From the NCBI RefSeq assembly GCF_030013595.1, contig NZ_CP122768.1: 64,000 nucleotides of DNA; one strand, given 5' to 3'. Below the pieces are notes generated by a model, which did not search any database, had not been told where the DNA came from, and was given only the letters and a program-made list of their open reading frames with translations. Origin of the DNA: Escherichia coli (lineage in GTDB: Bacteria > Pseudomonadota > Gammaproteobacteria > Enterobacterales > Enterobacteriaceae). Positions 1-27,954 of the stretch are shown here, piece by piece. The translations under genes were made by a program, and so were the position numbers. Position 1 is the first letter of the stretch. Every line of letters begins with the position of its first letter.

Positions 1-232
1 AGCGGCGGCAAAGTGGCAGCAGCTACAACGCGGAGCCGCAGCGTTCTCCATCACATTGGCACGTGGACGCGCAGAACTCTACCCCGAAATGCATGGCACG
101 GTAACAGGCTTTAAAAGCGAGATTGATAATCAGGACTGGATTATTGCGAAAGCCGAGCACACCATTGATAACAGCGGCTTTACCACGCAGCTTGAGCTTG
201 AGGCAAAAATCCCGGAATGGATAGCAGAATGA
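1..232 (+). CDS. 3' fragment of a phage late/tail gene, probably P2 gpD-like (runs off window start)
   Basis: Open frame from window start to TGA at 230-232 (..FTTQLELEAKIPEWIAE*); plus-strand, immediately upstream of an ogr-like gene as in P2 (D then ogr). Identification from position and weak sequence memory only. Confidence 0.4.
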   Translation, partial: AAAKWQQLQRGAAAFSITLARGRAELYPEMHGTVTGFKSEIDNQDWIIAKAEHTIDNSGFTTQLELEAKIPEWIAE

Positions 233-396
233 GACTCTTAAATGTATTAGTCCAGACACGTACTAGCGGGCTAAACGGCACAGTCTTATCTGACCATCTG
301 CCCCTGACACAGAGCAGACGGTCCTTGATCTTACCCACTAATAATGGACGCGCGACTAATATAATTTATTGCTTTTTATTTATACCTCACTGAGAT

Positions 397-1032
397 TTAG
401 CGAGCTAATATATTCAAAGAATTTAACAATTGAGTGTCGAGTGTTTCAGTTGCAGGAATCGGTAATCCATTCGCAATGCGGTAATTTTTCACAGACAGCC
501 TTGTGGATGGCCCCATTATGCCGTCAATATTTCCGTTATAAAATCCCCTGTCCAGCAATGCGAACTGAACTCGCATAATCAATCGCTTACGTTTCTCTGC
601 ATCAGAAGCAAGCCCATTACTCGTACGGTTAACCTCTGAAGTTCCAACAGAACTCGTGTTAGTGGTTCTATTATTATCGTTAGAACGAAGTGCACGCACC
701 GAGGAAGAGGACGATGAGGAACTTGCACCTGAACTTGAAGAACCAGATGAACTTGGTGAGCTGTATGTTTTTGGATAATAGGGGGTACTTCCACCATAGT
801 ATCCACCACCTGATGAGGATCTATGAGAGCTATGGCTCCTATGAGAACTATGGCTTCGATGCCCTGCGATATAAAATGGGACTTCCGTGTTAAGTGGAGC
901 TATCACTAAATCATGCTCATTAAGAGTCATACCAGGTAAATCACTCGCTCCTGTAGATGAATCGCTTGCCCATACAGAATTGTTGAGAGCCAAAAATCCC
1001 GGAAGTAGAGCAGCAAAATTAAACTTTTTCAT
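397..1032 (-). CDS. hxsA: HxsA-type His-Xaa-Ser repeat protein (signal peptide, tandem H-x-S triplets, Ser/Gly/Tyr-rich tract, C-terminal peptidoglycan-binding domain)
   Basis: Translation from MKKFNFAALLPGFLALNNSVWA (Sec-like signal) contains HRSHSSHRSHSSHRS, then SSPSSSGSSSSGASSSSSSSS, then a PG_binding_1-like C-terminus (LLDRGFYNGNIDGIMGPSTRLSVKNYRIANGL). Start ATG overlaps upstream gene stop (ATGA). Confidence 0.8.
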   Translation of the reverse strand: MKKFNFAALLPGFLALNNSVWASDSSTGASDLPGMTLNEHDLVIAPLNTEVPFYIAGHRSHSSHRSHSSHRSSSGGGYYGGSTPYYPKTYSSPSSSGSSSSGASSSSSSSSVRALRSNDNNRTTNTSSVGTSEVNRTSNGLASDAEKRKRLIMRVQFALLDRGFYNGNIDGIMGPSTRLSVKNYRIANGLPIPATETLDTQLLNSLNILAR

Positions 1033-2141
1033 AAAATTGGTCTCGGTGATTGATGAAAACGGCCTTTTGAGGAACTGAAATAGCCAGCACAGGAAGGCTT
1101 CTGAGTACATTCATCACATTCTTTTGGATAGTAATTTTTCCAATCAGAGATCGACTGAACAGCAAGCTCCCTAGCCCTTTCAGGAAGATAACACAAAGGA
1201 TAATTAAAAATTGTCAGAGGTATGCCTGACCTGTATGCAGCGTCTATGGCAGAGATTATTTTCTCACTATAACTACTGTGATCAATGAAGATGGTGGACC
1301 AGTTTTTTCGTGCCCAACCGATAGGCTCCAACCCCATAAGGGAAATCTGATTGATGTTGGAGAACACACGGCCAGCGAATTCTACGATATCATCCAATTC
1401 GGTATAGTTAGCCAGTGTAGGAATAACTCTAAGTTCGATATTAATCCCCAAGTTTCCTGCATTGATTAACCCTTTAACCGTTTCATTAAATGCGCCATCA
1501 CTCCCTACCAGATGATCATGCACAAGTGGTCTTGATGAGTAGAGCGGGATACCAAAGGTGATTTTGATCTTTTTGCTTCGCTTTGCCATTTCCTGTGTAA
1601 AGTTGGTATCAGCAAATTTGCGTCCGTTTGTTAAAACATGTAAAGCAGTATCTGGTGAATTCTCGATGATAAAATCAATGAAGTGAAGGAAGTCATCCCC
1701 ATATAGCAAAGGTTCACCACCGCTGACCCCAACAACTCCGTTCAAGCCAAATGAAGCTATAGCAAGAGCTGATTGGGTAAGTAGCCAGTCATCATTTATT
1801 TTCTTTGGTGGCTGCGAACAAAACAGACACAAGTTATTGCAGCGTTCCGTAACTAAGACAGTATTATGATTGGCTTTGCGTGACAGAATAACGCGTATCA
1901 TATTGCCATTGTTGATTATCCCAATATCTCCATCTTCAATTGACTCAAATAATTCAGTGCTAATAACAGAGAAATCAAAGCATGGTGGAATGGCATCATT
2001 ATTGCCTTCAGCAACTACTAGCAAATTGGGCAAAAAGAATAAAGGGTTCACTGGTTTTTGTTTGCATAACCGATAGAACCCCGTGGGCACGTTCTCTGTA
2101 GAAGCAAAATGAAAGATATCGTTCCTGATAACCTCAGACAT
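1029..2141 (-). CDS. Radical SAM maturase of the His-Xaa-Ser system (HxsB/HxsC-type; which of the two is not resolved)
   Basis: 370 aa ORF with CNNLCLFC (CxxxCxxC radical SAM cluster) and a C-terminal Cys-rich region (CDECTQKPSCAGY); sits between the other rSAM gene and hxsA with overlapping stop/start codons. Confidence 0.8.
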   Translation of the reverse strand: MSEVIRNDIFHFASTENVPTGFYRLCKQKPVNPLFFLPNLLVVAEGNNDAIPPCFDFSVISTELFESIEDGDIGIINNGNMIRVILSRKANHNTVLVTERCNNLCLFCSQPPKKINDDWLLTQSALAIASFGLNGVVGVSGGEPLLYGDDFLHFIDFIIENSPDTALHVLTNGRKFADTNFTQEMAKRSKKIKITFGIPLYSSRPLVHDHLVGSDGAFNETVKGLINAGNLGINIELRVIPTLANYTELDDIVEFAGRVFSNINQISLMGLEPIGWARKNWSTIFIDHSSYSEKIISAIDAAYRSGIPLTIFNYPLCYLPERARELAVQSISDWKNYYPKECDECTQKPSCAGYFSSSKGRFHQSPRPIL

Positions 2142-3522
2142 ATGCCCATCCTTTTAGCATCTCAGCCTTCGAACCACCCTCTGAGATGCAGTTCATCAGA
2201 TACCTGAACATCCCCTTGTGATATTGACAAAACGTTGAACGACTCCTATCACCGACAGGCTCACCCTGTACACTTATGTTCTGGCATGGATCTGAACCAC
2301 AAAATGGTTGATATGCACATGTATCACAACCTGGCAGAGCAAAATTGAACGATGAACTCAATACTGCGTTATAGTAAGGACTATCAGAAAATGATAGCGT
2401 CTTAACTTCACCCGCACTGAACTCCGTTTCAGGATTCACCTTCTGCAACATACGGCTCTCATCGCTACCATATACTCGACCGTCATAATTGAAAAGAATA
2501 CTGTTAAGCACGACTCCACTTGGAGACTTTAAATCCGCATAACCACTAAAACCGGGATTGAAGATCCTTTTCAGATGAATGGAGGCCGAATGTTCCACAA
2601 CCCTTATCCCTTCATTATTAATCTTAAGGATTTCATCTATCAACGAGGCATAGAAGCTGAAGTATTCGTCCATAGAAAAGGTGAAAGAAGCTTTTTGTGC
2701 AAACCCATAGGGACTAACAGGTCGGATAAACATGTCCTTGAGACCAAGAGACAAGTGAGCCTGAACAATCGATTCAGGACGTCTGATAAGCTCTTTAGTA
2801 ACTGTAGTAACCGTTGCAACGCGGCCAGCACCTAAAGAGTGTTTGATAGCCTCTACCCCTGACACTGTTCTACTGTACGCAAGCCCACGACCAAGAATTC
2901 GATTACTGTTGTGAACAACTTCCTCACCATCAAGCGACACAGAGAACGTTATGTTCCGGTCTCTCGACCATTCAATCATATCCTCATTCAAGACAGACAG
3001 ACTTGATGCCACCACCATCTCAAAATTGGTTCTTCCCAGCGTTTCAGCACATTGATCATAGATGCTCTGAATTAAATCAAACCGCAAGAGAGGCTCCCCA
3101 CCCTGTATCTCTATTTTGTAAGGTGGCGTTGATAGTTTTTTAATAGCCGAAATAATATCGGGGATGAGCTCAGGATTTAGGTCGTAACCTGAGGCATTAA
3201 CAGAAGCTCTACTAACCTGGCAATACTTGCATGTATGGTCACAACGTAATGTGGGTACAATCATGAAAATTGGCCTGACAGCCAGTTCATTCATCAATCG
3301 TTTTGCAAAAGCAGAACTTAAAGCATAGGGAGTTATAGCAGATGAGCTTTCACTGGTTATGAAAAGCTTACTTTCTAGCACGTTTGATTGCTCCGAACTA
3401 ATTCGCTCATCAGAAAGATCAATAAGGTCTTGCTCACCAATGAAATGATGAAAACCTGCAAGGTTGCTTATAAACACCTGTCCATTAGGCAATCTGTCAA
3501 AATTAAATGGCATCAATTCCAT
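2134..3522 (-). CDS. Radical SAM/SPASM-type maturase of the His-Xaa-Ser system (HxsB/HxsC-type)
   Basis: 462 aa ORF with CDHTCKYC radical SAM motif and C-terminal auxiliary-cluster cysteines (CDTCAYQPFCGSDPCQ...FCQ); stop overlaps next gene start by 8 nt; start overlaps hxsD stop (TAATG). Confidence 0.8.
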   Translation of the reverse strand: MELMPFNFDRLPNGQVFISNLAGFHHFIGEQDLIDLSDERISSEQSNVLESKLFITSESSSAITPYALSSAFAKRLMNELAVRPIFMIVPTLRCDHTCKYCQVSRASVNASGYDLNPELIPDIISAIKKLSTPPYKIEIQGGEPLLRFDLIQSIYDQCAETLGRTNFEMVVASSLSVLNEDMIEWSRDRNITFSVSLDGEEVVHNSNRILGRGLAYSRTVSGVEAIKHSLGAGRVATVTTVTKELIRRPESIVQAHLSLGLKDMFIRPVSPYGFAQKASFTFSMDEYFSFYASLIDEILKINNEGIRVVEHSASIHLKRIFNPGFSGYADLKSPSGVVLNSILFNYDGRVYGSDESRMLQKVNPETEFSAGEVKTLSFSDSPYYNAVLSSSFNFALPGCDTCAYQPFCGSDPCQNISVQGEPVGDRSRSTFCQYHKGMFRYLMNCISEGGSKAEMLKGWAYV

Positions 3523-3836
3523 TATGAAAGCCTCTCATCAACACTGCGAAGCACTTTATGGACAATAGAGTCTCTCAACGCCCCTGTTTTATGCTGTAGC
3601 TTTTCTCGCAAAGAGTAATCATTAAGCAGCCTATCGAATTCATAAAGGAATTTGGGATTATCGTTTTCAAAAGAGATTATCCAGTGGGAAACGTCTTCAT
3701 GGAGTTTCCATCGAGTAAGCGGAGTCATCCAATATAGACTATTGCGTATAACCCATTCAGAATATAGTTCTTTCTCAAACACTCTTTCGCTCATTGCAAT
3801 TATCTTCCAATACAAATATTCATGATCAGCAACCAC
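3522..3836 (-). CDS. hxsD: HxsD-type small protein carrying the LLNDYxLRE signature
   Basis: 104 aa ORF containing FDRLLNDYSLREKLQ; first gene of the four-gene minus-strand operon. True start may be an internal Met (MSERVF). Confidence 0.75.
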   Translation of the reverse strand: MVADHEYLYWKIIAMSERVFEKELYSEWVIRNSLYWMTPLTRWKLHEDVSHWIISFENDNPKFLYEFDRLLNDYSLREKLQHKTGALRDSIVHKVLRSVDERLS

Positions 3837-3871
3837 TTTAAAGCGGATTTTTCCTATGGCAACAATAATAT

Positions 3872-3974
3872 AACATATCCATAGATATGTTACAGATGCC
3901 TTGTTTCCCGTTGACTAATACATCACAACGTTAGTAATGGCTATCACAATTGTGAACTTCCACTTTTCACACAA
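3872..3974. promoter_or_regulatory. Divergent hxsD/ogr control region with two dyad-symmetric elements
   Basis: AACATAT-N6-ATATGTT palindrome at 3872-3891 and TGTGAA-N9-TTCACA dyad at 3954-3974, both in the 210-bp gap between divergent hxsD and ogr starts. Confidence 0.3.
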
Positions 3975-4046
3975 GACAAGCTGTTAATTGGAATCTGTAT
4001 CAGTACAACTTAGAATATCGGAAGCACCACAGTAAGGGAGGTCGCT

Positions 4047-4307
4047 ATGTTCCGTTGTCCGCTTTGTGGCGCATCCGCCCGAATCCGCACCAGTCGTCCG
4101 GAAAATGATTCAAACACCGTGCGGCAAAAGTATTACCAATGTAACAACCTAGAATGCGGCGTATGCTTCTCAACACTGGAAGCTTTCCATAAATTCACAT
4201 CAAAACACGCCTCCGGCGCTCACTCTTCAGAAGGTATCCCGTGGCATGAACTGCCAGCTTCACACAAAGGAAACAATCAGATGAGTTTGCCCTTACCTCA
4301 AAATTAA
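4047..4307 (+). CDS. ogr: Ogr/Delta-family zinc-finger late-gene transcription activator
   Basis: MFRCPLCGASARIRTSR...YYQCNNLECGVCF matches the P2 Ogr pattern (MFHCPLC..ARTSR...YHQCQNVNCSATF); C-terminally extended relative to P2 Ogr. Confidence 0.75.
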   Translation: MFRCPLCGASARIRTSRPENDSNTVRQKYYQCNNLECGVCFSTLEAFHKFTSKHASGAHSSEGIPWHELPASHKGNNQMSLPLPQN

Positions 4308-4367
4308 CAGGCAGAATTGCCGGAGTAACAAAAAAGAGATAGATTACGCGCGGGTGCCTTTCGGCTG

Positions 4368-4631
4368 ATGGTCGGAGGGAATACCCGAAGGCCAGATGTG
4401 GAAAGGCCCCGGAAAACATTTCTGTTTAACCGAGGCCCTAACCGCATTACCTTGACAAGTGAAAGGTTAGCGCCTCTCCGGAAAAGGAGCAAGTGCTATG
4501 TCGCAAAAATCGCTTACGGCCATCATGTTCTGCGTGACGGCAATCCTCATCATCTGGATGTTGCACGGTTCGCTGTGCGAAATACGGATGAGATTCTGGG
4601 GAGCGGAGTTTGCGGCGTTCTTACAGTGTAA
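4368..4631 (+). CDS. mok-like reading frame overlapping hok (translational coupling frame of a hok/sok locus)
   Basis: 87-codon ORF in a different frame that starts upstream of and overlaps the hok-like frame, the arrangement typical of mok. Confidence 0.4.
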   Translation: MVGGNTRRPDVERPRKTFLFNRGPNRITLTSERLAPLRKRSKCYVAKIAYGHHVLRDGNPHHLDVARFAVRNTDEILGSGVCGVLTV

Positions 4632-4638
4632 GCAGTAA
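4498..4638 (+). CDS. hok: Hok/Gef-family type I toxin, 46 aa
   Basis: ATG at 4498 preceded by GGAGCA; peptide MSQKSLTAIMFCVTAILIIWMLHGSLCEIRMRFWGAEFAAFLQCKQ has one hydrophobic helix and the Hok-type C-x-T...SLCEIR motif; the 5' element GGGTGCCTT (4352-4360) is complementary to AAGGCACCC (4695-4703), resembling tac/fbi pairing. Confidence 0.7.
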   Translation: MSQKSLTAIMFCVTAILIIWMLHGSLCEIRMRFWGAEFAAFLQCKQ

Positions 4639-4724
4639 GGAAACCGCGACGGGGGAGCAATCCCCCGTCAATCGGTTGCCAGGGTAAGGTCGATAAGGCA
4701 CCCTATCTCACAGACATGAACAAC

Positions 4725-4760
4725 AAACCCGCAACGTAAAAACTGCGGGTTTTCTTTTTG
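4725..4760 (+). terminator. Rho-independent terminator downstream of hok
   Basis: aaacccgcaacgtaaaaactgcggguuu hairpin followed by a T-run. Confidence 0.6.
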
Positions 4761-4902
4761 GTGTCCTTACTGACTTGAAACGGTGATCAGACTATAAGAC
4801 AAAGCCCACAATGTAGCGGGCTTACTCCCCTCTCCCTCCACTGAATGTGGACACATGGTGGAACGAAGATATATAAAACATTATAAATCAATCGGTTACT
4901 GA

Positions 4903-4928
4903 AAGAAAAAAGGCCGCAGAGCGGCCTT
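4903..4928 (-). terminator. Rho-independent terminator ending the minus-strand lambdoid gene set
   Basis: aggccgcagagcggcct hairpin with an A-run on plus strand (T-run on minus strand) immediately 3' of the ORF ending at 4949. Confidence 0.55.
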
Positions 4929-4948
4929 TATGGTTTATTGACAATTGA

Positions 4949-14163: not shown

Positions 14164-14421
14164 ATGCGTACAACCCAACAATTCAGCATTACATTAACTA
14201 ACGAAATGGCTGACATGGTGCGCGCCCGTGTGGCTTCCGGTGCCTATGCTTCAGAAAGCGAGGTCATTCGTGAAGGGCTTCGCGCACTGAATGAGCGCGA
14301 TAAAGCAATCGAAGCGTGGTTAACGCATTCAGCCGCCCCCTCTCTTGATTCTATCCGCGAAACCCCAAACAACGGACGCTCCATTTCACAGGTTCGCGCC
14401 GCGATTCGATCCGGGAAGTAA
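14164..14421 (+). CDS. parD: ParD-family antitoxin (ribbon-helix-helix)
   Basis: 85 aa; MRTTQQFSITLTNEMADMVRARVASGAYASESEVIREGLRAL typical ParD; immediately upstream of a ParE-like gene. Confidence 0.8.
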   Translation: MRTTQQFSITLTNEMADMVRARVASGAYASESEVIREGLRALNERDKAIEAWLTHSAAPSLDSIRETPNNGRSISQVRAAIRSGK

Positions 14422-14426
14422 TCTGC

Positions 14427-14726
14427 ATGACATATGAAGTCATCATTACTCCTGAGGCCGAACAACAAATAATCAACCTGCACAGGTATATAACGGAGAA
14501 AGCAGGGAACGTCATTGCTGACAATTATGCCAATGCGCTTCTTGATTATCTTGATGGGTTTTCTACATTCCCGCATCGGGGCAATAAACGCGATGATATT
14601 CGCCAGGGGATGCGGGTAACTCATTTCCGCCACAGAACGATTATTGCTTTTGCCGTTGATAGCAGAAAAGTCTTTATTGTCGGTATCTATCATGGTGGGC
14701 AAAGTTATGAAACCGATTTCTTATAA
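14427..14726 (+). CDS. parE: ParE/RelE-family toxin
   Basis: 99 aa; starts 6 nt after parD stop; a hairpin terminator follows. Confidence 0.75.
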   Translation: MTYEVIITPEAEQQIINLHRYITEKAGNVIADNYANALLDYLDGFSTFPHRGNKRDDIRQGMRVTHFRHRTIIAFAVDSRKVFIVGIYHGGQSYETDFL

Positions 14727-20178: not shown

Positions 20179-20655
20179 ATGCTTAGTGGTAAAGACTTAG
20201 GCCGAGCGATAGAGCAGGCCATTAACAAAAAAATCGCATCGGGATCCGTCAAATCAAAGGCGGAGGTCGCACGCCACTTCAAAGTCCAACCACCATCAAT
20301 TTATGACTGGATTAAGAAAGGCTCTATAAGTAAAGATAAACTTCCAGAATTATGGCGTTTCTTTTCTGATGTTGTTGGTCCAGAGCATTGGGGGCTTAAC
20401 GAATACCCCATACCAACCCCCACCAATTCAGATACAAAAAGTGAACTTTTAGATATAAACAACCTTTATCAAGCAGCCTCTGATGAAATAAGAGCGATTG
20501 TAGCTTTCCTGTTATCTGGAAATGCTACAGAACCAGATTGGGTTGACCACGATGTTCGCGCCTACATAGCAGCGATGGAAATGAAAGTGGGTAAGTATCT
20601 GAAAGCTCTAGAATCTGAACGGAAAAGCCAGAACATCACAAAAACTGGAACTTAA
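20179..20655 (+). CDS. Prophage repressor (CI-like, no peptidase domain; RacR-like size)
   Basis: 158 aa with N-terminal HTH-like region; flanked on both sides by the same operator motif. Confidence 0.55.
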   Translation: MLSGKDLGRAIEQAINKKIASGSVKSKAEVARHFKVQPPSIYDWIKKGSISKDKLPELWRFFSDVVGPEHWGLNEYPIPTPTNSDTKSELLDINNLYQAASDEIRAIVAFLLSGNATEPDWVDHDVRAYIAAMEMKVGKYLKALESERKSQNITKTGT

Positions 20656-20750
20656 ACTTATATGGTCTGACGGAAAACTCCTGGATTCCGTTATTTAACC
20701 CCCCATCACTTTCTGCTGTCGCCATCACCTATTAGGTTACGATCAAAACA

Positions 20751-20793
20751 TTAGGCATAGCCTATTGACAATCAATTAGGCATTACCTATAGT
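20751..20793 (+). promoter_or_regulatory. OL/PL-like: two operator sites overlapping a near-consensus sigma70 promoter
   Basis: TTAGGCATAGCCTAT and TTAGGCATTACCTAT; TTGACA (20765-20770), 17 nt spacer, TATAGT (20788-20793). Confidence 0.6.
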
Positions 20794-20892
20794 TCCAGCA
20801 TACCACCCACCCCGCCCCACAGAACGCAGGGCAATACTTCGAGTTACCAGGCAGTGGTCAGGGGTTAAGTAGCCAGCCCGAGGCGTAAGAAC

Positions 20893-21126
20893 ATGACGGC
20901 AGGGTTCAACTTTAACTATGCAGCAGGTTTTTGTTCCGCCACCCCGGCGTTAAGGGGAAATGAGGTCAGCATGGATACTATCGATCTTGGCAACAGCGAA
21001 TCTCTGGTATGTGGCGTGTTCCCCAACCAGGACGGCACGTTCACTGCGATGACGTATACCAAAAGCAAAACGTTTAAAACCGAATCTGGCGCGCGTCGCT
21101 GGCTGGAAAGAAACTCAGGTGAGTGA
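20893..21126 (+). CDS. Hypothetical early-left protein (start uncertain)
   Basis: ORF; alternative ATG at 20971. Confidence 0.3.
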   Translation: MTAGFNFNYAAGFCSATPALRGNEVSMDTIDLGNSESLVCGVFPNQDGTFTAMTYTKSKTFKTESGARRWLERNSGE

Positions 21127-21127
21127 T

Positions 21128-21259
21128 ATGGATTTCGACACAATCATGGAAAAGGCTTACGAAGAATACTTCGAAGGCCTTGCCGAAGGCGAAGAAGCTC
21201 TCAGCTTCAGTGAGTTTAAACAGGCGCTTTCCAGCTCGGCAAAATCTAACGGCTGATAA
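21128..21259 (+). CDS. Small acidic hypothetical protein, 43 aa
   Basis: ATG with AGGTGAG RBS; below ORF-track cutoff. Confidence 0.3.
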
Positions 21260-21285
21260 GCGAAGCAGCACCGCGAGGAATCAGT

Positions 21286-21504
21286 ATGCAGAAACGAGAA
21301 CCCGTCATCATCGCGCCAGACTATACCGATGATGAACTTTATGAGTGGATGCGCCAGAAAATTAATGCAGCGCAGGATCTGAAATGGGCCAATGAAGCCA
21401 GGGCTAAGCAGGCTGAAAATCTGTCCGCTCTGGAGCAGGATATCACCAGGCTGGAAAAAGCAGCGGCATTAAGCATTGCCAGAATGATTTCATACCCGCG
21501 TTAA
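21286..21504 (+). CDS. Hypothetical early-left protein
   Basis: 72 aa ORF with GAGGA RBS. Confidence 0.4.
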   Translation: MQKREPVIIAPDYTDDELYEWMRQKINAAQDLKWANEARAKQAENLSALEQDITRLEKAAALSIARMISYPR

Positions 21505-21639
21505 TAGCTAACCAACGAAGCTAAGGTTGGTAATTAAGGAGTTCTCCACGGGTCAGGTGGAGTGCGTGCGCCGGACACGGGTGAGCATCCGGTACGTTCT
21601 TTAAAAATCTGGATAGTCCCAACTTATTTAAACGGTTAA

Positions 21640-22071
21640 TTATCTTGAGTTCATCCAGAACTTATTATTGCAAGCGAGGCAAAAAGTACGAAAATGAGCA
21701 TCAAAGCGCATTATTTCCATTGGCTGAAGTACAGATATTACCTTTTTTCCAAAACATTGTGGGCAAAGATACACAGTTATCTCAGTATCGCCTATAAATT
21801 GCTTCTTGGAATATACAAGGGTTCCAGAATCAAGCTTGTTAAGCTTGTAACCTTCCGCCTGTCGCTGAAAATCTTCTGTCTCTGCAATTTTTGCTTTGAG
21901 ATGCATTATCTCTTCATCACGAAAGCGGATCGCATCGCAAAGAGAGAAGCATTCCGCCTGAAGCGTGATTAGTTTGTTCTGAAGTTCAATAGTTGCGGCT
22001 TTAACTTCTGCATCCGTTTTTGCGTCATTAATAACCTTAGCGAGACCAGCTGTCTCCTTTATCGCAGCCAT
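21640..22071 (-). CDS. Coiled-coil protein with C-terminal zinc-ribbon, encoded antisense to the early-left operon
   Basis: Probable start MAAIKETAG; CPQCFGK...CLACNNKF motifs; AT-rich segment. Confidence 0.4.
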   Translation of the reverse strand: MAAIKETAGLAKVINDAKTDAEVKAATIELQNKLITLQAECFSLCDAIRFRDEEIMHLKAKIAETEDFQRQAEGYKLNKLDSGTLVYSKKQFIGDTEITVYLCPQCFGKKVISVLQPMEIMRFDAHFRTFCLACNNKFWMNSR

Positions 22072-22411
22072 AGCCGCTGACAGTTCTGCTATCACGTTGA
22101 GTACTCTTCTCGTTGTTGGGGATATCCGGATTATACAAATTTCTTGTTGTTGGGGAATAACAGGAACCACCTCGCCTGACGTGGTTAAAAGCAGGCACAC
22201 AACGCGAAAGCGTACGGCGAGGTAGCTGGTTCATAGATAGCCTGTCGTTAAATTTTCGTCGACCGTGCACTTCCGGTTGTGGCAATCCGCGAAATGGCGC
22301 GGCGGTAAGTATGGCTGGGTTATCCTTACCCCATTAGTGGCACCGGGTTGTCAGGTTGACCATACGCTTAAGTGACAACCCCGCTGCAACAACCCATGTT
22401 GATTACCTTTT

Positions 22412-22622
22412 GGCGGGTATCCGTTTTTTGTTTTCCCTTGTGATACCCGCCCTTTTTAAAGTGAATTTTGTGATGCGGTGAATGCGGCTCAGCGCACGCG
22501 GAACAGTTAAAAAGGCCAGTTGACTTCCGTATTGGTTCTTATGGGTGGGTTCTCTGTATCCGGCGTTAATTATTAACTGGTTAACGTCACCTGGAGGCAC
22601 CAGGCACCGCATCACAAAATTC
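22412..22622 (+). promoter_or_regulatory. Nested inverted repeats in a 570-bp non-coding gap
   Basis: 10-bp perfect IR GGCGGGTATC/GATACCCGCC (22412-22421, 22442-22451) followed by T-run; 18-bp perfect IR GAATTTTGTGATGCGGTG (22463-22480) and its reverse complement (22605-22622). Confidence 0.4.
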
Positions 22623-22640
22623 ATTGTTGAGGATGCGATA

Positions 22641-22823
22641 ATGGAAACGTTATTACCAAACGTCAATACGTCTGAAGGTTGTTTTGAAATTGGTGTCAGA
22701 ATCAGTAACCCTGTATTTACTGAAGATGCCATTAATAAGAGAAAACACGAACGGGAGCTATTAAATCAAATATGCATTGTTTCAATGCTGGCCCGTTTAC
22801 GCCTGATGCAAAAAGGACGATGA
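22641..22823 (+). CDS. Small hypothetical protein
   Basis: METLLP start with GAGGA RBS. Confidence 0.3.
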   Translation: METLLPNVNTSEGCFEIGVRISNPVFTEDAINKRKHERELLNQICIVSMLARLRLMQKGR

Positions 22824-23109: not shown

Positions 23110-25581
23110 ATGAGTAAAGTCTTTATTTGCGCCGCCATTCCGGACGAACAGGCAATAAAGGAAGAAGGTGCAGTCGCTGTAGCCACTGCCATTGAAGCCG
23201 GCGACGAACGCCGCGCCCGAGCCAAATTTACCTGGCAATTCCTGGAGCAATATCCGGCTGCTCAGGACTGCGCTTATAAATTTCTTGTTTGCGAGGATAA
23301 ACCCGGCATGCCCCGCCCTGCCATCGACTCCTGGGATACCGAATATATGCAGGAAAACTGCTGGGATGAGGAATCCGCTTCCTTTATTCCGGTCGAACCA
23401 GAATCCGATCCGATGAACGTCAATTTTGACAAGCTGTCCCCTGAAGTACAGAACGCGGTCCTGGTTAAGTTCGACACATGTGAAAACATCACCGTTGATA
23501 TGGTTATTAGCGCACAGGAATTGTTGCAGGAAGACATGGCAACATTCGACGGACATATCGTTGAAGCGTTGATGAAAATGCCAGAAGTTAACGCCATGTA
23601 TCCGGAGCTTAAGTTGCACGCCATTGGGTGGGTTAAGCATAAATGTATTCCTGGTGCTAAATGGCCCGAAATTCAGGCAGAGATGCGCATCTGGAAAAAA
23701 CGTCGCGAAGGTGAACGCAAGGAAACCGGAAAATACACGTCTGTTGTTGATCTCGCCCGCGCCAGAGCCAATCAACAGTACACTGACAATTCAACAGGAA
23801 AAATCAGCCCGGTCATTGCTGCCACTCATCGCGAATACAAGCAGACATGGAAAACACTGGATGACGAACTGGCCTACGCTCTCTGGCCTGGTGATGTGGA
23901 TGCCGGAAACATTGACGGCAGCATCCATCGCTGGGCAAAAAATGAAGTTATCGACAACGACCGCGAAGACTGGAAGCGTATCTCGGCATCAATGCGCAAA
24001 CAGCCTGATGCCCTTCGCTACGACCGCCAGACTATTTTTGGCCTTGTCCGTGAACGTCCGATCGACATTCACAAAGACCCTGTGGCACTGAACAAATACA
24101 TTACTGAATACCTGACTACAAAGGGCGTGTTTGAAGATGAAGGAAGAAATCAGAGCGCAACTGATACTCTCTCGTCGCCAGTACCAGAAACTGATGCAGT
24201 GGAAACGGCAATTCCGGACAACGAAAAAACCGAATGCAAAGTGGAAGTCGAACCATCTGTAGAGCGTGAGGGGCCGTTCTACTTCCTCTTCACCGACAAG
24301 GATGGCGAAAAATATGGTCGCGCAAACAAACTTTCTGGTCTGAATAAGGCGCTGACTGCAGGGGCTACTGAAATCACGAAAGAAGAATATTTTGCCCGTA
24401 AAAACGGTACATACTCAGGTTCACAACAAAATACTGGTGCATCTGACACGACCGCACAACCAGAGCCGGTAAAAGTTACCGCTGACGAAGTAAACAAAAT
24501 TATGCAGGCAGCCAATATCAGCCAGCCTGACGCCGATAAGTTGCTTGCTGTATCACGTGGTGAATTTGTTGCAGGGATTAGCGACCCGAATGATCCGAAA
24601 TGGGTGAAGGGGATTGAAACCCGCGATTCAGTGAATCAGAACCAGCAAGAAACGGAACAGAACGACCAGAAAGCGGAACAAAACAGCCCAAATGCGTTAC
24701 AAAACGAGCCAGAAACGAAACAACCTGAGCCAGTAGCGCAACAGGAAGCGGAAAAAGTCTGCACCGCCTGCGGTCAGACCGGCGGCGGCAACTGCCCTGA
24801 TTGTGGTGCGGTGATGGGCGACGCAACATACCAGGAAACATTCGATGACAAGAACCAGGTTGAAGTTCAGGAAGACGATTCGGAGAAAATGGAAGGCGCT
24901 GAACATCCACACAAAGAGAATGCTGGCAGCGCTCAGGATCACGCCAGCGATAGTGAAACTGGCGAGACGGCAGATCCCTTAATTACGGTGAACGGTCATC
25001 ACGTTATCACATCCACCAGCAGGACGTGTGACCATCTAATGATCGACCTTGAAACCATGGGAAAAAATCCTGATGCCCCGATTATCTCAATAGGTGCAAT
25101 ATTTTTCGATCCGCAAACCGGAGATATGGGACCGGAATTTAGTAAGACTATCGATCTGGAAACTGCTGGCGGAGTCATTGATCGGGACACCATTAAATGG
25201 TGGCTTAAGCAATCACGCGAAGCGCAATCTGCCATTATGACCGATGAAATCCCGTTAGATGATGCACTGTTACAATTGCGGGAATTTATCGACGAAAACT
25301 CCGGTGAATTTTTTGTTCAGGTCTGGGGAAATGGAGCCAACTTCGACAACACGATTTTGCGCCGTTCATACGAACGGCAGGGGATCCCCTGCCCGTGGCG
25401 TTACTACAACGATCGCGATGTACGCACAATCGTTGAGCTGGGGAAAGCCATAGACTTCGATGCCAGAACGGCTATTCCATTCGAAGGTGAGCGCCATAAT
25501 GCACTTGATGACGCCCGTTACCAGGCAAAATACGTTTCAGCAATCTGGCAAAAACTGATCCCGAATCCGGTTGATTTTTAA
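23110..25581 (+). CDS. Large protein with C-terminal DnaQ-like DEDDh 3'-5' exonuclease domain (RecE-position gene)
   Basis: 823 aa; C-terminus has LMIDLETMG (Exo I), WGNGANFDNTIL (Exo II), HNALDDARYQAKY (Exo III); long acidic/Gln-rich linker. Confidence 0.6.
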   Translation: MSKVFICAAIPDEQAIKEEGAVAVATAIEAGDERRARAKFTWQFLEQYPAAQDCAYKFLVCEDKPGMPRPAIDSWDTEYMQENCWDEESASFIPVEPESDPMNVNFDKLSPEVQNAVLVKFDTCENITVDMVISAQELLQEDMATFDGHIVEALMKMPEVNAMYPELKLHAIGWVKHKCIPGAKWPEIQAEMRIWKKRREGERKETGKYTSVVDLARARANQQYTDNSTGKISPVIAATHREYKQTWKTLDDELAYALWPGDVDAGNIDGSIHRWAKNEVIDNDREDWKRISASMRKQPDALRYDRQTIFGLVRERPIDIHKDPVALNKYITEYLTTKGVFEDEGRNQSATDTLSSPVPETDAVETAIPDNEKTECKVEVEPSVEREGPFYFLFTDKDGEKYGRANKLSGLNKALTAGATEITKEEYFARKNGTYSGSQQNTGASDTTAQPEPVKVTADEVNKIMQAANISQPDADKLLAVSRGEFVAGISDPNDPKWVKGIETRDSVNQNQQETEQNDQKAEQNSPNALQNEPETKQPEPVAQQEAEKVCTACGQTGGGNCPDCGAVMGDATYQETFDDKNQVEVQEDDSEKMEGAEHPHKENAGSAQDHASDSETGETADPLITVNGHHVITSTSRTCDHLMIDLETMGKNPDAPIISIGAIFFDPQTGDMGPEFSKTIDLETAGGVIDRDTIKWWLKQSREAQSAIMTDEIPLDDALLQLREFIDENSGEFFVQVWGNGANFDNTILRRSYERQGIPCPWRYYNDRDVRTIVELGKAIDFDARTAIPFEGERHNALDDARYQAKYVSAIWQKLIPNPVDF

Positions 25582-25647
25582 TGTTCAACCCTGATCGCCG
25601 TCCCCGAATTATATTGGCGGCGGTCATGCTGTAAGGCACGTGACCAC

Positions 25648-25899
25648 ATGTACGAATTAACTCTATCGCCAGCAGAGATTCAAGAGATCACGAAATACGA
25701 GCGATACACAAAACAGCAACACCAGTTAAGGCTGCACGGTATCCCATTTGTAATCGGTCCTAAAAACGAACCAATAGTTCTTCGCAGGGATATTCCACAC
25801 GGACTGACTACGATGCCAAAAGCACCTGAACTGGTTTCCGCTGAACCCGATTTTGAGGCGCTGAACAATGGGAAGACCAAGAAAAAACAAAAAAGATAA
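25648..25899 (+). CDS. Probable excisionase / small recombination directionality protein
   Basis: 83 aa ORF overlapping the integrase start by 32 nt; assignment by position. Confidence 0.4.
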   Translation: MYELTLSPAEIQEITKYERYTKQQHQLRLHGIPFVIGPKNEPIVLRRDIPHGLTTMPKAPELVSAEPDFEALNNGKTKKKQKR

Positions 25900-26887
25900 T
25901 GCACTACCACCGCGTGTTAGATCGAATGGTTACAGTTACGTATGGAAACCCGAAGGAAGCACAAGAACTATAGGGCTCGGAAGAGTGCGGGAAACCAGCG
26001 TAGCTAAAGTCTGGCAAAATTATGAGCTGGAAAAAGCAAAACTCCACAACATAATGACAGTAGCTAAATTATGGCACATGTTTATGGACTCCCCTGCATT
26101 TACAGAACTGGCCCCCCGAACCCAAAAAGATTATCGGCAACATCAAAGGGCATTGTTGGCAGTATTCGGAAAAGTGCTTGCTGATAATGTAAAAATTGAA
26201 CAGGTAAGAATTTTCATGGATAAGCGAGGACTTGAGAGCAAGACCCAAGCAAACCATGAACTGGCAAGTCTGAGCCGTGTATACGGATGGGGATATGAGC
26301 GTGGGTATGTGAAAAATAATCCATGCAAAGGAGTCAGAAAATTCACACTTAAAGCCCGTACTGTTTACATCACCGATGAACAGTATGCTGCAATATATGC
26401 GGAAGCAATTCCACAGTTACGTATTGCAATGGAGATATCCTATCTTTGTGCGGCAAGGCTCGGTGATGTACTCGAGCTGAAATGGCAGGATATTATGGAG
26501 AAAGGGATTTACATTGAGCAAAACAAGACCGGCACTAAACAAATCAAGGAATGGTCTCCGCGATTACGTACGGCGATCCAGTTAGCCCGAAATGTATCTT
26601 CCGGCACATGCGAGTATGTGATCAACACAACCAAAGGCGGGAAGGTAATAGCCAAGACGCTGAACAACTGGTGGAATCAGGCTAAACGTGCAGCCGAGCA
26701 AAAAGCCGGCGTTCCGTTTGGGTGCAACTTCCATGACATAAAAGCCAAAGGGATTTCAGATTACGAAGGCAGCAGTCGCGACAAACAAATTTTCAGTGGA
26801 CACAAAACAGAAAATCAGGTGTTGATTTACGATCGTAAAACCAAAATAACACCAACACTGGATTTGCCGCTTGTGGTCAGTAAGTAG
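25868..26887 (+). CDS. Tyrosine-type site-specific integrase
   Basis: 339 aa; catalytic-region motifs (LCAARLGD, HDIKAKG, LIYDRK); adjacent to tRNA-derived att. Confidence 0.85.
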   Translation: MGRPRKNKKDNALPPRVRSNGYSYVWKPEGSTRTIGLGRVRETSVAKVWQNYELEKAKLHNIMTVAKLWHMFMDSPAFTELAPRTQKDYRQHQRALLAVFGKVLADNVKIEQVRIFMDKRGLESKTQANHELASLSRVYGWGYERGYVKNNPCKGVRKFTLKARTVYITDEQYAAIYAEAIPQLRIAMEISYLCAARLGDVLELKWQDIMEKGIYIEQNKTGTKQIKEWSPRLRTAIQLARNVSSGTCEYVINTTKGGKVIAKTLNNWWNQAKRAAEQKAGVPFGCNFHDIKAKGISDYEGSSRDKQIFSGHKTENQVLIYDRKTKITPTLDLPLVVSK

Positions 26888-27028
26888 GCAATACAGAAAA
26901 TTTTCTGGCAAAAAGACTTGGTATATTAACTCTGAATAACTCCCTAATATATTGATTTTTCTTGGTGTCAAGTCTGATTAACTTTTCGGATATTTTCCGT
27001 ATTATACTGATTTTTCTTTATTTTTCTT

Positions 27029-27088
27029 CGGTCTTGAAAACCGGCGACCCGAAAGGGTTCCAGAGTTCGAATCTCTGCGCTTCCGCCA
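27029..27088 (+). repeat. att core: truncated 3' 60 nt of tRNA-Ser (serT) ending in CCA; not a functional tRNA
   Basis: ggtcttgaaaaccggcgacccgaaagggttccagagttcgaatctctgcgcttccgcca matches anticodon stem to acceptor 3' end; the 5' 28 nt are replaced by AT-rich phage sequence. Confidence 0.8.
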
Positions 27089-27294
27089 AATAAGATAAGG
27101 GGTTAGCTAAATGCTACCCCCTTTTTCTTTTGCCTGTCGAAATTCTCAGGGCGTTATATTTGCTTAATGACCTGATAATCCGCTGTTAAACCTGTTCCAG
27201 ATCAAATGCGTAAAGATGGGTAAAACTTCTGGGTGCCCTTACGCATTATCATTATGCTGCTTAATTAATTACATCTGTCATAGAGAGTGACTCA

Positions 27295-27954
27295 ATGGAT
27301 CGTATTGTTAGTTCTTCACATGACCGTACATCGCTGCTTAGCACCCATAAGGTGCTGCGTAATACCTATTTTCTGCTGAGCCTGACGCTGGCCTTTTCTG
27401 CGATTACCGCAACTGCCAGTACGGTGCTGATGCTGCCATCTCCGGGTCTGATTCTGACGCTGGTGGGTATGTATGGTTTGATGTTCCTGACCTATAAAAC
27501 GGCGAATAAGCCGACCGGGATTATCTCCGCATTCGCCTTTACCGGTTTTCTGGGTTATATCCTCGGACCAATTCTGAATACCTATCTGTCTGCCGGAATG
27601 GGTGACGTAATCGCTATGGCACTGGGCGGAACGGCGTTAGTGTTCTTCTGCTGCTCTGCATATGTGCTGACCACCCGCAAAGATATGTCGTTCCTCGGCG
27701 GTATGCTGATGGCGGGTATTGTGGTGGTGCTGATTGGTATGGTTGCTAATATCTTCCTGCAACTGCCTGCTCTGCATCTGGCGATCAGCGCGGTCTTCAT
27801 TCTGATCTCCTCTGGCGCTATTTTGTTTGAAACCAGCAACATCATTCATGGCGGTGAAACGAACTATATTCGTGCCACGGTTAGCCTGTATGTTTCGCTG
27901 TACAACATCTTCGTCAGCCTGCTGAGCATTCTGGGCTTCGCCAGCCGCGATTAA
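27295..27954 (+). CDS. yccA: YccA, FtsH modulator (Bax inhibitor-1 family membrane protein)
   Basis: 219 aa; sequence and synteny match E. coli yccA. Confidence 0.9.

Follow-up and report, generated by a model that had tools for sequence, protein, structure and literature searches.

Integrase-side attachment junction of a lambdoid prophage in serT of Escherichia coli, with a P2-like prophage most likely nested inside it

Introduction

Where does the working copy of an essential tRNA gene lie once a prophage has inserted into it, and of what does the inserted DNA consist? The question is raised by a 64-kb window of Escherichia coli DNA (the whole stretch analysed, 64,000 nucleotides) in which an integrase gene stands beside a fragment of serT. 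The product of serT is the only tRNA that reads UCA codons, and the gene is essential. The analysis leads with high confidence to the reading that positions 25648-27093 are the integrase-side att junction of a lambdoid prophage in the single-copy serT gene, and that a P2-like phage has integrated inside this prophage. Among the genomes compared, one is treated as a clone-mate of the source, NZ_CM149870.1 (pig strain HCP5S3_I2), which is 100.0% identical to the window over 39500-64000; the next best genome or lineage reaches 99.6%. The prophage region of the clone-mate is designated L001.

Results

A serT 3' end lies between phage and chromosomal DNA

Positions 27029-27088 on the plus strand read CGGTCTTGAAAACCGGCGACCCGAAAGGGTTCCAGAGTTCGAATCTCTGCGCTTCCGCCA and match the 3'-terminal 60 nt of E. 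coli serT, CCA included, with 0 mismatches. They correspond to positions 29-88 of the 88-nt K-12 serT gene (tRNA-Ser UGA, b0971). The 60-nt string (CGGTCTTGAAAACCGG...GCTTCCGCCA) occurs once in the 64-kb window and was matched in none of 100 shuffles. The 28 nt that precede it (27001-27028) are phage DNA of 86% A+T, unrelated to the 5' part of serT. From 27089 on the sequence is that of the K-12 serT-yccA flank, the terminator and then yccA, with one mismatch in the 70 nt compared. K-12 itself has the empty site, an intact serT followed by the same flank. The features of the junction are as follows.

26888-27028, plus strand: phage arm of the att junction, adjoining int, 72% A+T; about 96% identical to the matching attP arm of phage Evi
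27029-27093, plus strand: att identity block, made up of the 3' 60 nt of serT (27029-27088, anticodon stem to CCA) plus AATAA; an exact 65-bp repeat at both prophage ends in L001
27095-27133, plus strand: hairpin followed by a T run in the bacterial flank, probably the terminator of serT; one mismatch to the K-12 flank
27295-27954, plus strand: yccA, the first chromosomal gene

A partial 3' copy of a tRNA gene is therefore bordered by phage DNA on one side and by the chromosome on the other, as at a tRNA att junction. The initial annotation, made from this sequence without database searches, had described a serT remnant that keeps its 3' 60 nt and CCA, has its 5' 28 nt replaced by AT-rich sequence and forms an att core adjoining the bacterial flank, and all of this is borne out. 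Its claim that no intact tRNA gene is present here also holds. ARAGORN predicted no tRNA in the whole 64-kb window, and a search of 26800-27300 against Rfam (E≤1) returned no tRNA, truncated or otherwise, the output consisting of two sub-threshold chance matches, one to ctRNA_p42d, on the terminator-like hairpin beyond the serT fragment, and one to GA-cis. A consensus scan for promoters and terminators was uninformative and did not call the hairpin downstream of the serT fragment. Compared with K-12, this hairpin has a single stem-weakening substitution (GCTACCCCC versus GCTAACCCC), which is also present in the clone-mate and is probably trivial.

The integrase is full length and probably functional

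The genes that lead up to the junction are as follows.

23110-25581, plus strand: 3'-5' exonuclease gene, 823 aa, upstream of xis and int; matches PHROG 2082 over its full length and is so annotated in RefSeq
25648-25899, plus strand: excisionase-like DUF4224 gene, 83 aa; PF13986 (E=3e-9) and PHROG 1266 'excisionase' (E=6.5e-23)
25868-26887, plus strand: lambda-type tyrosine integrase gene, full length, 339 aa; PF00589, alignment with lambda Int, 337/339 against Evi Int

The integrase matches PF00589 (E=4.4e-8) and several PHROG integrase families. Its phmmer alignment with lambda Int (1z1b; E=1.9e-17) covers residues 1-318, including the N-terminal arm-binding region, and its 339 aa fall in the usual length range of the family (335-357 aa). 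NCBIfam provided no usable family for Int or Xis. The excisionase-like reading frame overlaps the start of int by 32 nt; its 83-aa product is small and basic, is encoded upstream of int, and belongs to a family annotated as excisionase, so that it is a putative excisionase. The initial annotation had called both int and a putative xis intact. The first is confirmed by the full-length reading frame, its end-to-end alignment with lambda Int and its near identity with Evi Int, and the second agrees with the family matches of the 83-aa protein.

The active-site residues of the integrase are R197, K220, H289, K292, H312 and Y321. Five of the six members of the canonical R-K-H-R-H-Y set are thus present, and the second arginine is replaced by K292, within the motif FHDIKA (residues 288-293; window 26729-26746). 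An inactive integrase, with the element a fixed remnant, would be one explanation of the replacement: K292 aligns with lambda R311, a position whose conservation is reported to equal that of the catalytic tyrosine (PMC2943603). Several observations make this very improbable. Of 120 homologues, which range down to 56% identity and across the Enterobacterales, 116 keep HD[ILV]K, and this argues for selection and not decay. The plaque-forming phage Evi carries the same lysine, and the reading frame in the window is full length. The corresponding Cre mutant, R292K, is active in vivo and in vitro, although its covalent intermediate accumulates, and a few natural lysine variants at the second catalytic arginine have been noted (Gibb et al., PMC2943603). 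Decay of the integrase through its HxxK motif was dropped as a candidate because of the family-wide conservation and the published activity of Cre R292K. As judged from its sequence, the integrase is probably functional, and its lysine is a rare but documented active-site variant. An integrase family found across the Enterobacterales with a natural lysine at this position is also a convenient natural test of the Cre R292K result.

The phage arm between int and the serT fragment contains one exact copy, at 26917, of a candidate arm-type site, CTTGGTATA. With at most one mismatch allowed, this motif occurs 5 times within about 250 bp of the Evi attP, against 1.4 expected in 9.4 kb; the int-side arm has it once and the other Evi attP arm three to four times.

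The intact serT gene lies at the far end of the prophage in the clone-mate

The chromosomal order in the clone-mate is hyaA, an annotated tRNA-Ser gene, the lambdoid prophage and yccA. Within the prophage the order is tail, head, terminase, lysis, Q, replication, RacR-type immunity, DicB, exonuclease, DUF4224 and integrase. The intact tRNA-Ser gene (L001 3658-3745) lies beside hyaA, at the far end of the 45.3-kb prophage from yccA. Both prophage ends carry the 60-nt core; with AATAA added, the exact repeat is 65 bp long, and the distance between its two copies is 45,338 bp. What lies downstream of the copies differs: K-12-type sequence follows the fragment at the int end, and another terminator-like sequence, AATAATCAAGGGGTTACCAAATGGTAACCCC, follows the tRNA gene at the far end. 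It follows that the phage brings its own serT 3' end and terminator, and that the 3' end left in the window is the bacterial one. The phage-type sequence downstream of the intact serT is AATAATCAAGGGGTTACC.

A free form of the same attachment site is found in phage Evi (LR597642), the only phage record that matches the module (96% over 1,429 bp). Evi, a temperate coliphage, was brought into culture from samples of the infant gut (Mathieu et al. 2020, PMC6969025). Its attP has the arm found at 26888-27028 of the window, the same 60-nt block (L004 5430-5489), and the terminator of the far junction in the clone-mate. An attP with the core in a free phage and an empty attB in K-12 are thus both represented, and attP, attB, the int-side junction and the far junction are all composed as expected from one reciprocal exchange within the 65-bp identity block.

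The same int-junction-yccA arrangement is present in 745 of 5,426 complete E. coli genomes (about 14%), a genome being counted if one place in it covered at least 80% of window 25600-27300 and had an annotated DUF4224 protein, integrase and yccA.

The window itself ends short of the far junction. Because serT is single-copy and is the only reader of UCA, this genome must have an intact copy somewhere else, and from this essentiality together with the clone-mate we infer both the intact gene and its far junction. The expectation in the initial annotation of a functional serT beyond the window, and of an insert larger than the window, agrees with the lack of any tRNA gene in the 64 kb and with the position of serT at the far end of the 45.3-kb prophage in the clone-mate. 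There, the second copy of the core that it proposed to seek is present inside the intact annotated tRNA-Ser gene. The far end was correctly placed outside the window; a P2-like junction at 4926 had been missed, and the distance to the far end should consequently exceed one prophage length.

A P2-like prophage end occupies the left end of the window

The lambdoid part of the window is collinear with L001 26902-49901 over 23,000 bp, at 99.87% identity and without gaps, and the match begins only at window position 4907. To the left of this point the sequence belongs to another kind of prophage.

1-4901, no strand assigned: right end of a P2-like (Peduoviridae) prophage; window 1-4935 is 99.5% identical to P2-like prophages between btuC and ihfA
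within 1-4901, no strand assigned: 3' end of the gpD gene, part of the P2-like right end
397-1110, minus strand: hxsA, of a His-Xaa-Ser radical-SAM cluster
1029-2141, minus strand: hxsC, same cluster
2134-3522, minus strand: hxsB, same cluster
3522-3836, minus strand: hxsD, same cluster
4047-4307, plus strand: ogr/delta zinc-finger gene, part of the P2-like right end
4498-4638, plus strand: hok/gef gene, part of the P2-like right end
4902-4926, plus strand: 25-bp P2-like att core (AAAGAAAAAAGGCCGCAGAGCGGCC) at the P2-like/lambdoid junction; the same 25 bp are a direct repeat in ETEC1730
4927-27028, no strand assigned: right-hand 22 kb of the lambdoid prophage, with lysis genes, Q, RusA, ParDE, replication genes, RacR/YdaS/YdaT-type immunity genes, DicB, exonuclease, xis and int

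Several details of the lambdoid part may be recorded. Of the 31 mismatches between window and clone-mate over the 23 kb, 12 lie within 285 bp (24301-24585), inside the gene for the 823-aa exonuclease, which suggests a small recombination or mosaic patch in a nearly identical prophage. Coordinates transferred from the annotation of the clone-mate place a ParD/ParE toxin-antitoxin pair at 14164-14726 and a Rac/Qin-like early region (RacR, YdaS/YdaT, YdfB/C, DicB) at 20179-22823.

On either side of the P2-like prophages at btuC/ihfA stands the ihfA terminator, as a 25-bp direct repeat, GGCCGCTCTGCGGCCTTTTTTCTTT (ETEC1730); a 25-nt duplication has also been described for the P2-like prophage PP_SE11-4 at this site in strain SE11 (PMC2608844). 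The uninterrupted lambdoid prophage has 20 contiguous nucleotides of this core at L001 26907, between its lysis and terminase genes. The resident prophage thus carries a look-alike of the attB of the second phage, and the junction in the window falls on the core. A Logan contig continues the P2-like end leftward into gpD, sheath and tube genes; the HxsA variant of the window was found in short Logan contigs only, of at most 8.4 kb. The slot between ogr and gpD holds variable cargo among the btuC/ihfA P2-like prophages. It carries hxsDBCA in the window, in ETEC1730 and in O26 11368; in the P2-like prophage of the clone-mate (L025, NZ_CM149870.1 2386135-2423800) it holds two hypothetical proteins, an IS4-like element and an ATP-binding protein.

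The junction recurs and has a reciprocal partner

The P2-like/lambdoid junction is absent from 5,426 complete RefSeq E. coli genomes, and an exact-protein look-up with a 69-aa lambdoid protein returned uninterrupted or otherwise different contexts only. An exact 31-nt probe for the junction found two IMG/VR contigs. The first, L006, matches the window at 99.97% identity and breaks off precisely 77 nt past the branch point, on the P2 side; the second, L005, runs across the junction. One of the two extends more than 5 kb on the P2 side. The reciprocal left junction, composed of the lambdoid left flank, the core and the int side of the P2-like element, is present in IMG genome 2737471845 (L026), which also holds the right junction L005; lambdoid terminase and portal genes lie on one side of it, and P2-like genes from int through gene A on the other. 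The right junction is therefore seen in the window, which starts inside the P2-like element, and the left one only in the IMG genome. The P2 end in that genome is 94% identical to the one in the window; this degree of identity between P2 right ends suggests at least two independent insertion events.

In another E. coli genome (CP181272.1, L007; 10767-19887) the region downstream of the gene for the 69-aa protein, which in related prophages holds the terminase genes, has a different block in their place, with Bro-N, DUF4222, an AAA_25 protein, SSB and an integrase fragment that has an arm-binding domain. Lambdoid prophages may have an insertion hot spot in this region.

An assembly chimera at 4902-4926, where a short hairpin is shared between the two prophages, would leave the serT prophage in reality uninterrupted, and such an error could account for a junction that no complete RefSeq E. 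coli genome contains and whose shared sequence is a repeat of 20-25 bp. A repeat of that size is shorter than the usual k-mers of assemblers, however, and two independent IMG/VR contigs have the identical junction, one of them reaching more than 5 kb into the P2 side; the genome that holds one of these right junctions also holds the reciprocal one. A chimera is thus extremely improbable, the least likely of the explanations weighed here.

The same join could also have come from a chromosomal inversion of about 0.8 Mb, in which the 20-nt look-alike in the serT prophage recombined with the att core of a P2-like prophage located at btuC/ihfA. Such an event would leave the lambdoid prophage with its two ends apart and inverted, and unable to excise. 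The strands fit this explanation, since the P2 end on the ihfA side has the K-12 plus orientation and the yccA side the minus orientation, and P2-like prophages that bear hxs genes are present at btuC/ihfA in many strains. On the other hand, the P2-like prophage that occupies btuC/ihfA in the clone-mate is a different one: it carries other cargo, and its identity over ogr-hok is only 93%. The junction that an inversion predicts (lambdoid left flank, core and ihfA flank) had 0 matches in IMG/VR, where the junction predicted by nesting was found. The end of L006 at 77 nt into the P2 side fits a P2 end that is a repeat in that genome, if the assembler broke the contig there. An inversion is accordingly quite unlikely, if somewhat less so than a chimera or an inactive integrase. 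With btuC/ihfA occupied in the clone-mate by a different P2-like prophage, a second P2-like phage at a secondary site is the simplest reading, and positions 1-4926 are most likely the end of a P2-like prophage nested inside the serT lambdoid prophage.

Discussion

Proposed course of integration

In the course of events that best fits these data, the attP of the lambdoid phage would carry its own last 60 nt of serT together with a terminator, and the integrase would recombine it with the chromosomal serT. Since the identity block starts at the second base of the anticodon stem, the crossover most likely took place in the 7-nt anticodon loop; the stem arms CCGG and CCGG would flank the loop as inverted core sites. 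Williams reportedly described, in 2002, an anticodon-loop class of tRNA integration sites, and the serT block fits such a class. The intact serT at the far (hyaA) end would then consist of the bacterial 5' part and the 3' part supplied by the phage, and the original bacterial 3' 60 nt would be left as a dead fragment between int and yccA. The integrase and the DUF4224 excisionase-like protein would together reverse the integration.

A P2-like phage would have used the 20-nt look-alike of the btuC/ihfA site, between the lysis and terminase genes of the lambdoid prophage. The order predicted for the nested element is hyaA, intact serT with AATAATCAAGGGGTTACC, the lambdoid tail, head and terminase genes, ...ACATGAAAAAGGCCGCAGAGCGGCC, the P2-like genes from int through gpD, and then the window. 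The distance upstream from 27029 to the intact serT would come to about 80-85 kb, the sum of about 45 kb and about 36-39 kb, which would put the gene some 55 kb beyond the start of the window. Excision of the P2-like element would restore the lambdoid sequence ...ACATGAAAAAGGCCGCAGAGCGGCCTTTATGG.

Recombination by Int and Xis between the two serT junctions should have no length limit, so that excision of the whole composite is chemically plausible. Its product of about 80-85 kb would exceed the packaging capacity of a lambdoid phage unless the P2-like prophage left first, and the P2-like insertion would separate the lysis genes from the cos and terminase genes.

Significance of the two junctions

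The junction between integrase and serT is an ordinary structure of an already known kind and belongs to textbook biology. It fixes the right boundary of the prophage at 27028/27029 and explains why no serT is predicted beside yccA. It also carries a warning for annotation, in that the serT on which the reading of UCA codons depends is located far upstream.

The use by a P2-like element of an attB look-alike in a lambdoid prophage extends the integration of prophages into prophages to a different phage family and a different target. Whether this is a habit is a broader matter. There is about an even chance that P2-like phages that find btuC/ihfA occupied repeatedly use the 20-nt look-alike of the ihfA terminator in lambdoid prophages, so that nests arise in which one temperate phage disables the resident one. 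If so, the nest would separate the cos and packaging genes of the lambdoid prophage from its late promoter, and the composite would be too large to package.

Comparison with known systems

The closest relative of the integration module is that of Evi. The xis-int-attP modules share about 96% DNA identity, the integrases agree at 337/339, and the 60-nt block and the int-side arm are the same. The rest of the genome differs, and Evi is a free phage of 40 kb, whereas the module here is part of a lambdoid prophage of the 45-kb type interrupted by a P2-like element.

The likeness to phage lambda lies in the full-length alignment of the integrases, including the arm-binding region, and in the overlap of xis with int. 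In contrast to the present element, lambda has its attB outside any tRNA gene; the integrase described here has a lysine for the second catalytic arginine, and the arm-type sites are candidates only. The identity block of the present element extends over the tRNA from the anticodon stem to the 3' end, and the gene is thereby rebuilt on integration; in this the element resembles those with integrases that target tRNA genes.

At the same chromosomal locus, the lambdoid prophage CP-933M of E. coli O157:H7 EDL933 is reported to be inserted between yccK (tusE) and tRNA-SerT (PMC5552260), so that at least the locus is shared with the prophage described here.

Prophages that integrate into prophages through attB-like sequences have been described in E. 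coli (Nakamura et al. 2021, PMC8112680). As in those cases, a resident lambdoid prophage carries a short look-alike of a chromosomal attB that is used by a second phage. The published cases are lambdoid and Stx phages at loci linked to effector genes, and the paper makes no mention of P2-like phages, ihfA, btuC or serT; here, by contrast, the incoming element is P2-like and its target is a look-alike of the ihfA terminator between lysis and terminase genes. With the P2-like prophages at btuC/ihfA, such as PP_SE11-4 (PMC2608844), the nested element shares the right-end genes ogr and hok and the 25-bp core. Unlike theirs, the core in the window abuts lambdoid DNA and not ihfA.
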